Positions 16,883 to 21,382 of a stretch of 32,182 nt of DNA are shown in pieces. This DNA comes from an uncultured Bacilli bacterium (GTDB lineage: Bacteria; Bacillota_I; Bacilli_A; RF39; UBA660), in assembly GCA_944331885.1 (NCBI GenBank), contig CALVJF010000001.1, forward strand, positions 1 to 32,182. The letters are read 5' to 3'. The position numbers were made by a program, and so were the translations under genes. The notes beneath the pieces were generated by a model. The model was not told the DNA's origin. It did not search any database and was given only the letters and a program-made list of their open reading frames with translations. Every line of letters begins with the position of its first letter. Positions within the stretch are counted from its first letter, which is position 1.

Positions 16883-17551
16883 TTGGATTTATTATTATTA
16901 CTTGTAATTTTGATAATACCAGCTGTTGCTCAGTGGGGTGTTTATAAAAGTTACAATACATATAAACAAGTTAAAAATTCGAAAGGAATTAGTGGATTTG
17001 AAGTTGCTAGAAAAATTTTAGATGCTAACGGATTAGAAAAAGTTCATGTGGTAGAAGTTAATGGGAATTTAACTGATCATTATGATCCTAGTCGTAAAGT
17101 AGTTCGTTTGTCTTCTGATGTTTTTCATGGCGAAACTATAGCTGCTGTATCAATAGCTGCTCATGAAGTTGGTCATGCTCTTCAAGACAAAGATGGTTAT
17201 TTATATATGCGCTTTAGATCATTAATTTTTCCAGTTGTTAACGTTGCAACAGGAGTATCTTATTATATTATTTTATTAGGAATATTGTTGCAAGCATTTG
17301 ATATGATAATGTTGGGTATTGCTTTAACAGGCTGCGGTTTAATTTTTCAATTAGTTACATTGCCTGTTGAATTTAATGCTAGTAATAGAGCTAAGAAGTT
17401 ATTAACTAAAATGAATTTAGTTAGTGCTGGAGAAGCTGAAGGTGTAAGAAGTATGTTGGGAGCTGCTGCTATGACTTATGTGGCAGGAGTTATTGCAAGT
17501 GCTTTACAGATTTTAAGATTATTAATGGTCTATGGTGGAAATAGAGATTAA
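16883..17551 (+). CDS. Membrane zinc metallopeptidase, YugP family
   Basis: It has HEVGHALQ (HExxH), an N-terminal TM helix, LTDHYDP, and C-terminal TM helices typical of the putative neutral zinc metallopeptidase family. AGGAGG lies 7 nt before the TTG start, and the gene starts 11 nt after the cysS stop. Confidence 0.75.
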   Translation: MDLLLLLVILIIPAVAQWGVYKSYNTYKQVKNSKGISGFEVARKILDANGLEKVHVVEVNGNLTDHYDPSRKVVRLSSDVFHGETIAAVSIAAHEVGHALQDKDGYLYMRFRSLIFPVVNVATGVSYYIILLGILLQAFDMIMLGIALTGCGLIFQLVTLPVEFNASNRAKKLLTKMNLVSAGEAEGVRSMLGAAAMTYVAGVIASALQILRLLMVYGGNRD

Positions 17552-17572
17552 GCTACTTAAGTAGCTTTTTTT
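17551..17572 (+). terminator. Rho-independent terminator
   Basis: AGCTAC - TTAA - GTAGCT is followed by seven T residues. Confidence 0.75.
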
Positions 17573-17637: not shown

Positions 17638-18210
17638 ATGAAAAAGTTATGGCTGTATAAAATAGTTAGGCCTTTTATTACTTTTTTATTTAAATTGATA
17701 TATCATCCCAAAATAATAGGTAGTGAATTTATTCCTAAAAAAGATGGTATTGTATTAGCTGGTAATCATACAAATAATCTTGATTGTTTGTTGTTAATAT
17801 CGTCAACTAAAAGAAATATTCATTTTTTGGCAAAAGATTCACTATGTAAAGGAGTAAAAAAGTATATATTTTTAAATATGGGAATTATTCCTGTTGATCG
17901 TTCAAAACGAAATAAAGAGGTTATGGAAGTTGCGCGTAATGTTTTAAATAATAATGGAGTAATTGGAATTTTTCCAGAAGGTACTATTAATCGAACTGAA
18001 GATATAATTATGCCTTTTAAAATGGGGGCGGTTAAAATGGCTTATGATACTGCAAAGTGCATTGTGCCATTTGCAATAACCGGTAAATATAAGCCATTTA
18101 TTAATGATTTGAAAATTGTTTTTAGTAAGCCATATAAAATTAATAATGATTTAATAAAAGAAAATAAATTATTAAGTAATAAAGTTACTGAACTTTTAAG
18201 GAGGAAATAG
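17638..18210 (+). CDS. PlsC-family (lysophospholipid/glycerolipid) acyltransferase, paralog 1
   Basis: The HX4D motif (GNHTNNLD), FPEGT motif and PFKMGA block are present. A GGGAGG SD precedes the start. This is the first gene of the operon. Confidence 0.8.
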   Translation: MKKLWLYKIVRPFITFLFKLIYHPKIIGSEFIPKKDGIVLAGNHTNNLDCLLLISSTKRNIHFLAKDSLCKGVKKYIFLNMGIIPVDRSKRNKEVMEVARNVLNNNGVIGIFPEGTINRTEDIIMPFKMGAVKMAYDTAKCIVPFAITGKYKPFINDLKIVFSKPYKINNDLIKENKLLSNKVTELLRRK

Positions 18211-18212
18211 CA

Positions 18213-19961
18213 ATGGGTCTAATTAAAAGATTATGGACAAGAATTTTTAAAAAGTATAGTGATGAACCACCATGGTTAGAGTATTATTCTGAAGAGGAAA
18301 GGGCAATTAAATTTACTGATAAGTCTATTTATAATTATATGGAATCTTCAATAGATAACAAAGAGTATTATGCTCTTAATTATTTTGGTAATAGAATTAC
18401 GTATGGAGAAATGTTAAGAAGAATAGATTTAATTAGTAGAGGATTATTGTCATTAGGGGTTAAAAAGGGCGATGTTGTTAGTATTTGTATGCCAAATACG
18501 CCAGAGGCAGTTATTGCTTTTTATGCTTGTAATAAAATTGGAGCAATTGCTGATATGATTCATCCATTATCTGCAGCTAATGAAATTAAATCTTATATTG
18601 AAGATAATAAATCAAGAGTGTTATTTTTATATGATGCTAATTATGAAAAAGTGTGTGATTTTTTAGATGAAACAACAGTATATAAAACTATATTATTATC
18701 AGTTAAAGAGTCAATGCCTTTAATGTTAGGTATTGGTTATCAATTAACGCGAGGATTAAAAATTAAAAAGCCGAAAATGACAAATCAAGATTATATATCT
18801 TGGAGTGATTTATTAAATTTAGGAAGAGGATATCGTAATCAAAAGAAGATTAATGTTAAGTCTCAAGATTTGGCTATTATTTTGCATAGTGGTGGTACTA
18901 CTGGCAAGTCAAAAGGAATAATGATAAGTAATTACAATTTTAATGCTGAAGCTCAACAATGTGCTTTAAATGTGGCAAATGTTAGAGTACAAGATAAGAT
19001 TATGACAATATTGCCTATTTTTCATGGCTTTGGTTTAGGAGTTTGCGTTCATTGTCCTTTAACTTTGAATGTTGAAGTTATATTAATTCCGGAGTTTGAT
19101 GGAAAAAGGTTTCATCATATTATTCAAAAATATAAACCAAACGTTATAGCTGGAGTACCTACTTTATGGGAAGCAATGTTGAGTAATAAACGTTTCGAGG
19201 ATGTTGATTTGTCTTGCTTGAAATATGTTATTAGTGGTGGAGATTATTTAACAATAAGTATGGAAGAAAAAATGAATAAGTTTTTACGTACTCATGGAGC
19301 AAGTATTTCTATTTCTAAAGGCTATGGAATGACAGAAAGTGTTGCAGCTACTGCTTATACTTTTGATGGAACAAACGAGCCTGGTTCAATAGGAATCCCA
19401 ATGATAGGTAATAATTTTTGTATTTGTAAACCGGAAACAACTGAAGAGTTGCCTTATGGTGAAGAAGGAGAAATCTGTGTAAATGGTCCGACAGTAATGA
19501 TGGGTTATTGGGAAAATGTAGAAGAAACGCATAAAGTTTTGAAAAAACATAAGGATGGTAAAATTTGGTTGCATACTGGAGATGTTGGATATATTGCTTT
19601 AAATGGGGTTATTTATTTTACCCAAAGATTGAAAAGAATGATTGTTTCTAGTGGCTTTAATCTTTATCCTAGTGTTATTGAGGAAGTAATTGAGAAACAT
19701 CCTTTAGTTAAAAAGTGTTGTGTGATTGGGGTACCTCATAAGTATAAAATAAGTGTGGCAAAAGCTTTTGTAGTATTAGATGGAGAACCTTCTAAGAAAA
19801 TTGAAAGAGAGATTAGAGATATTTGTAAGGAAAATTTGGCTCAATATTCTCAGCCAAAATATATTGAGTTTAGAGATGAACTTCCAAAAACTTTGTATAA
19901 TAAAATTGATTATAAAACTTTAGAAAACGAAGAAAGTATGAAAAATAATGAAGCAAAGTAA
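18213..19961 (+). CDS. ANL-superfamily adenylating enzyme, FadD-like fatty acid-CoA (or carrier) ligase
   Basis: AMP-binding core motifs are present: HSGGTTGKSKG (A3), GYGMTES (A5), TGDVGY (A7), RLKRMIVSSGFNLYP (A8) and PKTLYNKIDY (A10 Lys). The start lies 2 nt after the upstream stop, with AAGGAGG inside the upstream gene. Confidence 0.85.
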   Translation: MGLIKRLWTRIFKKYSDEPPWLEYYSEEERAIKFTDKSIYNYMESSIDNKEYYALNYFGNRITYGEMLRRIDLISRGLLSLGVKKGDVVSICMPNTPEAVIAFYACNKIGAIADMIHPLSAANEIKSYIEDNKSRVLFLYDANYEKVCDFLDETTVYKTILLSVKESMPLMLGIGYQLTRGLKIKKPKMTNQDYISWSDLLNLGRGYRNQKKINVKSQDLAIILHSGGTTGKSKGIMISNYNFNAEAQQCALNVANVRVQDKIMTILPIFHGFGLGVCVHCPLTLNVEVILIPEFDGKRFHHIIQKYKPNVIAGVPTLWEAMLSNKRFEDVDLSCLKYVISGGDYLTISMEEKMNKFLRTHGASISISKGYGMTESVAATAYTFDGTNEPGSIGIPMIGNNFCICKPETTEELPYGEEGEICVNGPTVMMGYWENVEETHKVLKKHKDGKIWLHTGDVGYIALNGVIYFTQRLKRMIVSSGFNLYPSVIEEVIEKHPLVKKCCVIGVPHKYKISVAKAFVVLDGEPSKKIEREIRDICKENLAQYSQPKYIEFRDELPKTLYNKIDYKTLENEESMKNNEAK

Positions 19962-20535
19962 GAAATTAAATGAGTGGGGTTATAAGGTGTTTAAACCAAT
20001 ATTAAGTCCAATATTTAAATTATATTATAATCCTAGAATAGAAAATAAAGAATATTTGCAACAAGATGGACCAATTGTGGTAGTTGGAAACCATAAGCAT
20101 ATTATGGATCAATGTTTGGTAATTATTGCAACGAAAAGGATTATTCATTATATGGCTAAGAAAGAATATTTTGATGGAAAAATGGCTTGGTTTTTTAAAG
20201 CAACTGGTTGTATATCCGTCAATCGAAGTATTCATGATTCTAATGCCAAGAATAAAGCTTTGGAAGTGTTAGAAAGTGGGGGAGCTATTGGTCTTTTTCC
20301 TGAAGGAACTAGAAATAAGACTAAAGCTAAATTGTTGCCGTTTAAATATGGTGCTGTTTCAATGGCTAAGAAAACTAATGCGACAATCATTCCTTTTGGA
20401 ATAGTAGGAGATTATAAATTTCGTAGCAAAAATTTAAAAATAAAATTTGGAAAACCGTTTAAAGTTGGTGAAATGTCTTTAGAAGAGGCAAATGCTAAGT
20501 TGGAAAAGATAGTGTTAGAATTAATTGGAGGGTAG
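19948..20535 (+). CDS. PlsC-family acyltransferase, paralog 2
   Basis: The HX4D motif (GNHKHIMD), FPEGTRNKT and PFKYGA are present, and the protein is collinear with the 17638 gene. Its start overlaps the ligase stop by 14 nt. Confidence 0.8.
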   Translation: MKQSKKLNEWGYKVFKPILSPIFKLYYNPRIENKEYLQQDGPIVVVGNHKHIMDQCLVIIATKRIIHYMAKKEYFDGKMAWFFKATGCISVNRSIHDSNAKNKALEVLESGGAIGLFPEGTRNKTKAKLLPFKYGAVSMAKKTNATIIPFGIVGDYKFRSKNLKIKFGKPFKVGEMSLEEANAKLEKIVLELIGG

Positions 20536-20537
20536 TA

Positions 20538-21362
20538 ATGAGTAAAGATAGGAAAGATGGAAGATATATAAAGCCGAATGATGCAATCCATGCAATCATG
20601 CCTTATTTAATGGAAAAAAGAACTGAGTCTGAAGTATACAAAAGTCAACTAATTGATATTACCGAGTTAAAAAAATGGGTTGATACTAAAAATAAGGAAT
20701 TAGATTTTAAAATGACATATTTTCATGCATTAACTGCTTTATTGGTAAAAGTTCTTTACAATAGAAATTTATTAAATCGTTTTGTACAAGGGCATAGAAT
20801 TTATGAAAGAAATTATGTTTCTGTGACTTTTGCTGCTAAAGATAAAATGAGTGATAATGCTGAAGAAAAAATGATAGTATTGAAAATTGATAAAAAAGAT
20901 AATGGAGTTAAGTTGGCAAAAAAAATGGCAGTAGATATATTTAAAGTTCGCAAAGAAGGGACAAACGATTTAGATCAAACTTTAAAAGTAATTACTAGAA
21001 TGCCACGTTGGCTGTTAAGAATATTTGCTAAATTTGTAAAATGGTTGGATTATCATGGCTGGTTACCATCTAGTTTTACAGATACTGATCCTAACTATAG
21101 TACATTGTTGTTATCTAATTTAGGAAGTATAAAAAGTGATTCTTGTTATCATCATTTAAATAATTATGGTACTAATTCAATTATTATAACTATTGGATTG
21201 ATTAGAGAGGAAAAGGGAAAAACTTTAGTAGATTTAAGTGCAACTTTAGATGAAAGAATAGCGGATGGGTTTTATTTTGTAAAGTCAATGAATTTAGCGC
21301 AATATATAGCGAGTAATCCAGAAATTTTAGAAGAAGAGCTTGGTAAAATAATTAAAGAATAA
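20538..21362 (+). CDS. Stand-alone 2-oxoacid dehydrogenase E2 / CAT-fold acyltransferase-like protein with a DER variant of the DHR motif
   Basis: The protein is collinear with E2 catalytic-domain blocks (IDITELKKW, MTYFHALTALLVKVL, TLLLSNLGS, LSATLDERIADGFYFVKSM...NPEIL). There is no lipoyl or E3-binding domain. GGAGGG precedes the ATG, which lies 2 nt after the upstream stop. Confidence 0.6.
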   Translation: MSKDRKDGRYIKPNDAIHAIMPYLMEKRTESEVYKSQLIDITELKKWVDTKNKELDFKMTYFHALTALLVKVLYNRNLLNRFVQGHRIYERNYVSVTFAAKDKMSDNAEEKMIVLKIDKKDNGVKLAKKMAVDIFKVRKEGTNDLDQTLKVITRMPRWLLRIFAKFVKWLDYHGWLPSSFTDTDPNYSTLLLSNLGSIKSDSCYHHLNNYGTNSIIITIGLIREEKGKTLVDLSATLDERIADGFYFVKSMNLAQYIASNPEILEEELGKIIKE

Positions 21363-21382
21363 GTACTTAAGTACTTTTTTTT
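21361..21382 (+). terminator. Rho-independent terminator closing the four-gene acyl operon
   Basis: AAGTAC - TTAA - GTACTT is followed by a T-run. Confidence 0.7.

Follow-up and report, generated by a model that had tools for sequence, protein, structure and literature searches.

The window analysed here is a stretch of 32,182 nucleotides (nt) from an uncultured Bacilli bacterium (assembly GCA_944331885.1, contig CALVJF010000001.1), and the gene in question is the fourth of four closely packed genes at 17638–21362 (Table 1). It encodes a protein of 274 amino acids (aa) that an earlier note, made from the sequence alone, had correctly placed last in an operon and had likened to the catalytic domain of the E2 subunits of 2-oxoacid dehydrogenases, with glutamate replacing the catalytic histidine. 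The His of the HHxxxDG/DHRxxDG motif is commonly taken to be the hallmark of the entire superfamily of chloramphenicol acetyltransferase (CAT), E2 and condensation domains. We refer to the protein and its relatives as E2L, our own label for a family of stand-alone proteins of the E2/CAT fold that combine DERxxDG, (Y/F)HHL and a helical insert.

The three other genes of the operon encode two PlsC-family acyltransferases, A and B, and a FadD-like ligase. Consecutive genes are spaced by 2-nt gaps or a 14-nt overlap, the gene for acyltransferase B overlapping the ligase gene by 14 nt and ending 2 nt before E2L. The top NCBIfam matches of the ligase are long-chain-fatty-acid--CoA ligases, every one of them under its equivalog cut-off. 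Pfam searches of the open reading frames (ORFs) of the window identify, as neighbours of E2L, PlsC-type, FadD-type, alanine racemase and Zn-peptidase genes.

Table 1. Features of the operon and of the E2L gene, with positions in the window
Feature	Positions	Strand	Basis or remark
PlsC-family (HX4D) acyltransferase A	17638..18210	+	Pfam PF01553, 7e-28; first gene of the operon
FadD-like long-chain acyl-CoA ligase	18213..19961	+	Pfam AMP-binding, 1e-79; conserved partner gene
PlsC-family (HX4D) acyltransferase B	19948..20535	+	Pfam PF01553, 2e-26
GGAGGG Shine-Dalgarno sequence	20527..20532	+	Read from the sequence; 5 nt 5' of the E2L ATG
E2L gene, 274-aa stand-alone E2/CAT-fold protein	20538..21362	+	ORF list; last gene of the operon
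R5-K-D7-G8 motif of the N-terminal arm, nearly invariant	20550..20561	+	R5 in 113, D7 in 114 and G8 in 93 of 130 representatives
Cationic amphipathic helix, residues 149-171, LKVITRMPRWLLRIFAKFVKW	20982..21050	+	Within the family-specific insert
SNLGS block	21114..21128	+	S193 aligned by HMMER with the oxyanion Ser, Ser148 of CAT III
YHHL motif (Y204-H205-H206-L207)	21147..21158	+	H205 is the best-conserved residue of the family; candidate relocated catalytic His
DERIADG motif (D238-G244), counterpart of DHRxxDG / HHxxxDG	21249..21269	+	Sequence; E2 and CAT alignments; codons GAT GAA AGA ATA GCG GAT GGG (D238-E239-R240-I-A-D243-G244)
GAA codon of Glu239, the residue aligned with the catalytic His of E2 and CAT	21252..21254	+	Sequence; alignments
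Palindrome AAGTAC-TTAA-GTACTT followed by a T-run, likely operon terminator	21361..21376	+	Read from the sequence

Glu239 stands at the position of the catalytic histidine

The DERIADG motif and its GAA codon lie where the earlier note had read them, the glutamate being residue 239 of the ORF, and the strings that it had quoted (TLLLSNLGS, CYHHLNN, LSATLDERIADGFYF and NPEIL) are all found in the E2L translation. Pfam PF00198 scores 22.0 bits on the window protein against a cut-off of 23, with only residues 28–101 aligned; since this match is sub-threshold, Pfam alone is insufficient to fix the register of the motif, and four profile comparisons were used. With a HMMER profile of 23 homologues, LDERIADG matches IDHRILDG when aligned to the Listeria E2 structure 3mae, and VHHAVCDG when aligned to CAT III. 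With hhalign, 130 E2L representatives aligned to 14 canonical E2 catalytic domains drawn from genomes of the window's own class with a probability of 98.3% (E 1.9e-14), DERIaDG falling column-for-column on DHRIIDG, and to 13 clostridial CATs with a probability of 89% (E 2e-6), E239 falling on the second, catalytic His of HHAvxDG. The catalytic-domain alignment of E2L begins at about residue 35.

The same conclusion follows from the predicted structure. The AlphaFold2 monomer model, built from a 58-sequence alignment (predicted local distance difference test, pLDDT, 85; predicted template modelling score, pTM, 0.85), has the motif between a strand (228–238) and a helix (244–259), as in E2, and when it was compared with the PDB by Foldseek the 50 best matches were all E2 catalytic cores (E 1e-14 to 1e-12, template modelling score up to 0.79). 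The two HMMER comparisons, the two hhalign comparisons and the model thus agree that Glu239 stands at the position of the catalytic His of E2 and CAT. Both the likeness to the E2 catalytic domain and the register that the earlier note had drawn by eye are upheld, none of the four alignments putting the His of DHR at another residue. A sequence search of the PDB with the single window protein gave no match, and a profile search gave only weak E2 and CAT matches, so that no family member appears to have been solved; NCBIfam holds no model matching the E2L protein, and we found no publication on the family in literature searches.

E2L is a discrete family

Searching a protein collection clustered at 90% with the window protein yields 3,983 homologues (E <= 1e-3); clustering at 50% leaves 1,287 representatives, 700 of them at E <= 1e-10. 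We ran the family profile on 600 genomes, of which 299 belong to the same phylum as the window and 301 to that of Hominibacterium faecale; E2L was carried by about 26 of the former and 13 of the latter. Across this set the family members match over their full length at E <= 1e-54 in ORFs of 260–330 aa, while true E2 proteins match partially, at E values of about 1e-9 to 1e-12, within ORFs of 400–560 aa; no match fell between the two groups, which are more than 40 orders of magnitude apart. We judged the separation on these bimodal E-values, as a tree of E2L, E2 and CAT at about 15% identity was deemed unreliable. The gap identifies E2L as a discrete family and not a divergent E2, and the sequence comparisons support its placement as a large, discrete branch of the E2/CAT fold, in line with the divergent subfamily that had been one option of the earlier note.

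Carriers of E2L are frequent among gut Clostridia, Erysipelotrichaceae and small-genome Bacilli, and cultured ones include Hominibacterium faecale SF3 and Lentihominibacter hominis NSJ-24 (loci L074 and L088). The family reaches from Actinobacteria to Bacillota, its members being named either 'hypothetical protein' or '2-oxo acid dehydrogenase subunit E2' in databases. Four signatures characterize it, all of them present in the window: D-[ED]-R-x-x-[DE]-G at the strand–helix junction; [YF]-H-H-[LI] at 34–44 residues upstream of DER, found also in all fusion variants checked; a helical insert that follows the central helix and precedes the SNLGS strand; and frequent linkage to a FadD-like ligase, here within one operon.

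The name given to such relatives raises the reading that E2L is a genuine, if divergent, E2 component of a 2-oxoacid dehydrogenase complex, and the E2 fold and weak PF00198 match speak for it as well. The window protein, however, has neither a lipoyl domain nor a subunit (E3)-binding domain by Pfam, lacks the catalytic His and stays below the Pfam cut-off; the other genes of its operon are lipid genes, not E1 or E3, and a six-frame PF00198 search of its genome found no canonical E2 at E <= 0.01. Together with the E-value gap, these features make the reading hardly credible, and to call the window protein an E2 subunit would be wrong. With the E2 core (PF00198; 3mae, 1b5s, 6zzn, 1dpb) E2L has in common the fold (Foldseek probability 1.0, E ~1e-14), the strand-motif-helix arrangement, the D, R, D and G of DHRxxDG, the SN(L)G block and the C-terminal NPxxL. 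It differs in the Glu or Asp that replaces the motif His, in the absence of lipoyl and E3-binding domains and of E1/E3 genes from its operon, in an additional helical insert of about 38 residues, in its invariant YHHL and N-terminal RxDG, in an oxyanion Ser that is not conserved, and in having an acyl-CoA ligase as partner gene.

Three side observations concern individual family members. Tandem or double copies of E2L occur at G403:C15:3844-5729 and G488:C110:41-1730, and two copies each in G171, G182 and G363, so that hetero-trimers are conceivable. Homologues in three genomes of about 2 Mb from the same class (G141:C1:213453-214187, G217:C21:2422-3165 and G197:C32:31879-32613) have in-frame TGA codons, one or two each; under translation table 4 the G141 copy is an intact 289-aa protein adjoining a FadD-like gene, so these lineages probably read TGA as Trp. 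Finally, E2L proteins 46–53% identical to that of the window are encoded on contigs of metagenome-assembled genomes (MAGs) labelled Methanobrevibacter sp. (L049), archaeon (L045) and Muribaculaceae (L054), with a FadD-like gene adjoining E2L in L045 and L049; mis-binned Bacillota contigs seem a more likely explanation of all three than real transfer.

Conservation is concentrated in the pocket

Whether homologues conserve the glutamate was a question raised by the earlier note, and an alignment of 130 full-length representatives (28–53% identity) shows that they do. Position 239 is Glu in 109, Asp in 12, Asn in 3, Gln in 1, Gly in 1 and a gap in 4, which makes it acidic in 121/130, and His occurs in none. 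The other columns of the motif are D238 in 124, R240 in 125, D243 in 117 and G244 in 126, and D238, E239 and R240 are invariant among 58 close homologues. Judged by these counts, the exchange of His for Glu in the motif is not drift.

The best-conserved residue of the family lies outside the motif. His205 of YHHL is present in 128/130 representatives and ranks first by information content, followed by G211, N80, G244, G220, P156, R240 and D238; H206 is kept in 121/130, and D238, R240, G244, H206, S197 and D243 are all among the top 20 columns. The column of the oxyanion Ser holds Ser in 53, Ala in 40 and Thr in 36, and N194, G196 and S197 of the same block are highly conserved; the classical oxyanion Ser is thus not required in the E2L family. 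At the other end of the protein, the nearly invariant R-K-D-G motif of the N-terminal arm survives as GDRSDGR at the junction in relatives fused to transmembrane segments. The pocket is the most constrained region of the protein, though with residues other than those of E2, which is the opposite of what a decaying pseudo-enzyme would display.

A putative catalytic histidine on the opposite wall of the pocket

HMMER (with CAT III) and hhalign (with the clostridial CATs) both place Y204-H205-H206-L207 on N159-L160-N161-V162 of CAT III. In Staphylococcus aureus CAT, the numbering of which equals that of CAT III minus 6, residues 150–158 make up the strand by which neighbouring protomers pair, Leu154 and Ile156 (CAT III Leu160 and Val162) are among the residues of the 'binding protomer' that contact chloramphenicol, and the catalytic His is supplied by the adjacent 'catalytic protomer' (PMC12549896). 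By this mapping His205 and Leu207 would point into the acceptor pocket, across from Glu239 of the adjacent subunit, and His206 towards the neighbouring strand; we infer the placement of His205 opposite Glu239 of the next protomer from these alignments. Residues 195–214 are coil in the AlphaFold2 monomer model (pLDDT ~68), as might be expected of a strand that becomes ordered only within a trimer.

The fold may well be able to work without the motif His, to judge by two precedents. In Escherichia coli E2o, H375A and D374A each cause only a 54-fold loss, and H375W keeps 60% of the activity with an unchanged pH profile, and the authors assign the motif His a hydrogen-bonding rather than an acid–base role (PMC5986005). 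In cyclisation (Cy) domains of non-ribosomal peptide synthetases (NRPS), members of the same superfamily, the acidic DxxxxD replaces HHxxxDG and the domains are still catalytic, which would make them a precedent by analogy for a rewired site (PMC10510592). Unlike E2L, these domains, about 450 aa in length, have the form of a two-lobed pseudo-dimer, reside in megasynthases and use carrier-protein thioesters, and no sequence relation between the two is detectable beyond the fold class.

We propose that the general-base His has moved in E2L. His205, on the strand that forms the wall of the acceptor pocket, probably serves as base from the opposite side of the pocket, facing Glu239 of the neighbouring protomer; this Glu239, in the old His position, is probably the partner of His205, which it would orient or polarise, or else a transition-state ligand that would help to stabilise the tetrahedral intermediate. 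The earlier note had offered Glu or the nearby HH as base, which is compatible with this proposal and is, among its options, the one we prefer, as H205 is the top column and position 239 is acidic in nearly all representatives.

Alternatively, Glu239 could replace His in place, as general base or transition-state hydrogen-bond partner of an otherwise ordinary CAT-type acyl-CoA O-acyltransferase, with His205 and His206 merely shaping the acceptor pocket or binding a head group. Glu stands exactly in the His column with the D, R, D and G of the motif intact, the Asp tolerated in 12/130 representatives would suit a carboxylate base, and the motif His of E2o works by hydrogen bonds and not by acid–base chemistry (PMC5986005). 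H205 is nevertheless more conserved than E239, which gives way to Asn or Gln in 4 representatives, and the most invariant residue of a family extending from Actinobacteria to Bacillota would rarely be purely substrate-shaping; we consider this alternative credible yet unlikely.

Type A CATs (CAT III and CAT I, PF00302) are another of the closest known systems. They and E2L have a common fold, HHAVCDG aligned with DERIADG, a stand-alone size of 210–280 aa and, if our proposal holds, the same chemistry with an acyl-CoA donor and a hydroxyl acceptor; the CAT trimer with its interface sites is also what we envisage for E2L. In contrast, similarity of E2L to CAT is weaker than to E2, Pfam finds no PF00302 match in the window protein, His195 is replaced, Leu160 has become His, and E2L carries an insert that would bind membranes.

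A family-specific insert with an amphipathic helix

By hhalign, about 38 residues of E2L (~143–185) have no counterpart in E2. The AlphaFold2 model contains two helices in this insert (144–153 and 157–172). No other segment of the protein reaches the hydrophobic moment of LKVITRMPRWLLRIFAKFVKW (0.80, at a mean hydrophobicity of about 0.05), a stretch with many Trp, Phe, Arg and Lys residues. In membrane-anchored relatives the equivalent segment exceeds the threshold of hydrophobicity for transmembrane segments. The amphipathic helix probably binds the membrane interface.

Gene neighbours and domain fusions

Neighbouring genes were surveyed at 80 loci from named genomes, 65 of which were scorable. 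These loci had been gathered via a closer alignment and the set is biased by the DERIA pattern, so that it was kept out of the His/Glu census. In 34/65 loci E2L has a FadD-like gene at a distance of at most three genes, and in 24 the two are directly adjacent; both gene orders are seen, and stop and start codons often overlap. Ligase and E2L adjoin each other in 4 of 14 further genomes as well, and among eight other E2L genomes of the window's taxonomic family FadD is adjacent in three and near in one. Many loci have no further acyltransferase in the vicinity and consist of ligase and E2L alone. Translational coupling of E2L to an upstream GT4 glycosyltransferase gene is seen in gut Bacilli MAGs, the top curated match of the GT4 being alpha-monoglucosyl-diacylglycerol synthase (113 bits, far under the equivalog cut-off), and CDP-alcohol phosphatidyltransferase and PlsC genes are found near E2L in some loci. 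In the loci examined we found no carrier-protein gene adjoining E2L and saw no link to resistance genes. One locus is of interest in itself: at L047:2933-4045 on the minus strand, a single 370-aa ORF encodes a CDP-alcohol phosphatidyltransferase and a PlsC-type acyltransferase as fused domains. A separate PlsC gene and a FadD gene adjoin it, and an oppositely transcribed E2L gene is found nearby.

E2L also occurs as part of larger proteins. Five protein clusters (P0234 and P0291-P0294), one of them from Pseudonocardiaceae, are fusions with WS/DGAT, and others are fusions with PAP2 (P0199), a GMC oxidoreductase (P0295), a GtrA-like domain or unannotated domains for which 5–6 transmembrane segments are predicted; in P0149, P0239 and P0296-P0301 an N-terminal membrane domain with 3–6 predicted transmembrane segments precedes E2L. 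The E2L part retains DERxxDG and (Y/F)HHL in every fusion, and the WS/DGAT part retains HHAxVDG, so that the WS/DGAT fusions carry two CAT-superfamily domains per chain, one with DERIEDG and FHHL and the other with HHAxVDG. WS/DGAT (PF03007, HHxxxDG) is an acyl-CoA-dependent lipid O-acyltransferase of the same superfamily, built of two domains with the canonical HH motif, whereas E2L is a single E2-type domain with DER and YHHL.

The fusions bear on the possibility, put forward in the earlier note, that E2L is a non-catalytic scaffold. In such a role E2L would bind acyl-CoA or lipid, as a scaffold or chaperone, and would feed the PlsC enzymes or tether the ligase to the membrane, which would be in keeping with the lost motif His, the linkage to an acyl-activating enzyme, the amphipathic membrane helix and the two bona fide HX4D acyltransferases of the window, which could do all the chemistry. 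A precedent among the fold matches is E3BP (6h60), or protein X of eukaryotic pyruvate dehydrogenase (PDH), an E2 paralogue without the catalytic His that keeps its lipoyl and binding domains and sits in the PDH core as a structural pseudo-enzyme. E2L, however, has none of these domains, and conservation, instead of being relaxed at the former active site, is highest there. Moreover, many loci have ligase and E2L alone, and the motif is kept in fusions with PAP2 and membrane domains and stays unchanged beside the HHAxVDG domain of WS/DGAT. We therefore disfavour a scaffold as distinctly improbable.

A hydrolase or metal-dependent enzyme, such as an acyl-CoA thioesterase or a lipid esterase, has also to be considered, as the conserved H205, H206, D238, E239 and D243 look like residues that could bind a metal or activate water and a gene for a metallo-beta-lactamase (MBL)-fold hydrolase is found between ligase and E2L in several Clostridia. 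A thioesterase paired with an acyl-CoA ligase would nevertheless amount to a futile cycle, and strand neighbours such as 205 and 206 normally point in opposite directions, H206 facing the neighbouring strand by the CAT alignment. We know of no hydrolase with the E2/CAT fold, which further counts against this reading, and the odds of its being right seem to us slim.

As an observation in its own right, the gene order FadD, MBL-fold hydrolase (260–320 aa), E2L recurs in MAGs of Lachnospiraceae and Oscillospiraceae (L055, L059, L084 and L097) and at other clostridial loci.

Lipid synthesis in the genome and its lineage

The genome from which the window comes (0.92 Mb, 89.6% complete) yielded no ACP, PlsY, PlsX, DegV/FakB or FabF, and contains CdsA and three PlsC-family genes, two of them within the operon. 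Across 31 genomes of the window's taxonomic family, PlsY was found in none, ACP in three (weakly), an orthologue of the ligase in 26 and E2L in nine. The lineage appears to make its phosphatidate entirely from scavenged fatty acids via acyl-CoA, one PlsC-type enzyme presumably acting as glycerol-3-phosphate acyltransferase. With 9/31 genomes carrying E2L as compared to 26/31 for the ligase, E2L is accessory to this fatty-acid scavenging route and not part of its core.

Two more specific roles were considered and rejected. That E2L is the missing glycerol-3-phosphate acyltransferase of a PlsY-less lineage was rejected as a general explanation, since it is carried by only those nine genomes. An acyl-CoA:ACP transacylase was rejected as well, as we found no ACP in the genome, next to none in the family and no carrier gene adjoining E2L elsewhere.

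Proposed function

The chances seem to us evenly balanced that E2L is an active, membrane-interface, acyl-CoA-dependent lipid acyltransferase with a relocated catalytic His, working with a FadD-like ligase, which is the reading that we favour and draw from sequence and genomic context. In the proposed mechanism, an exogenous fatty acid would first be activated to acyl-CoA by the co-transcribed FadD-like ligase. E2L, probably a trimer like all E2/CAT enzymes, would then bind the thioester in the tunnel between protomers and, with His205 and Glu239 of the neighbouring subunit as a putative pair, pass the acyl group to the hydroxyl of a membrane lipid, for example a diacylglycerol, a glycolipid or a lysolipid.

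Several observations weigh against this proposal. The alignments with CAT are weak around the HH region (HMMER E 0.02–0.1; hhalign 2e-6) and the alignment with E2 is gapped there. The oxyanion Ser column is Ala in 40/130, so the chemistry may deviate more than we assume. About half of the loci have no FadD gene nearby and their neighbours vary (ABC-F, flavodoxin and housekeeping genes), from which it follows that the ligase is not an obligatory partner, and within the window's own family E2L is the accessory gene described above. Lastly, the links to GT4, PAP2 and WS/DGAT point to diacylglycerol-level chemistry only loosely.

With that latitude, the PAP2 and WS/DGAT fusions and the coupling to a GT4 gene resembling monoglucosyl-diacylglycerol synthase would loosely suggest an acceptor at the level of diacylglycerol or glycolipid. 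Going one step further, we suggest tentatively, as a possibility well short of an even chance, that E2L represents a new class of lipid acyltransferase in gut Bacillota, its catalytic His having shifted to the other side of the protomer interface. With a dedicated FadD-type ligase as partner, it would attach exogenous fatty acids to a diacylglycerol-level lipid or glycolipid, and it could, for example, be the as yet unassigned enzyme for acylated glycosyl-diacylglycerols or for a third acyl ester.

The fold itself is known; what is new here is an uncharacterised, widespread subfamily with a rewired active site. In this branch of several thousand proteins the motif His is never there, the other motif residues are kept and a new invariant His is found, putatively on the opposite wall of the pocket; if our proposal is true, nature would here have relocated a catalytic residue within an oligomeric active site in a particularly clear-cut way. 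The database name '2-oxo acid dehydrogenase subunit E2', where such proteins are not just called 'hypothetical', is wrong, and knowing what E2L acylates would fill a gap in our understanding of membrane building in such bacteria from fatty acids of the host or its diet.

Operon boundaries

The palindrome at the end of the E2L gene has too few G-C pairs for the terminator scanner, which detected a similar, terminator-like hairpin upstream of the operon at 17550–17567. The operon is thus bracketed by two near-identical palindromes around CTTAAG, AAGCTACTTAAGTAGCTT and AAGTACTTAAGTACTT, each followed by a T-run.

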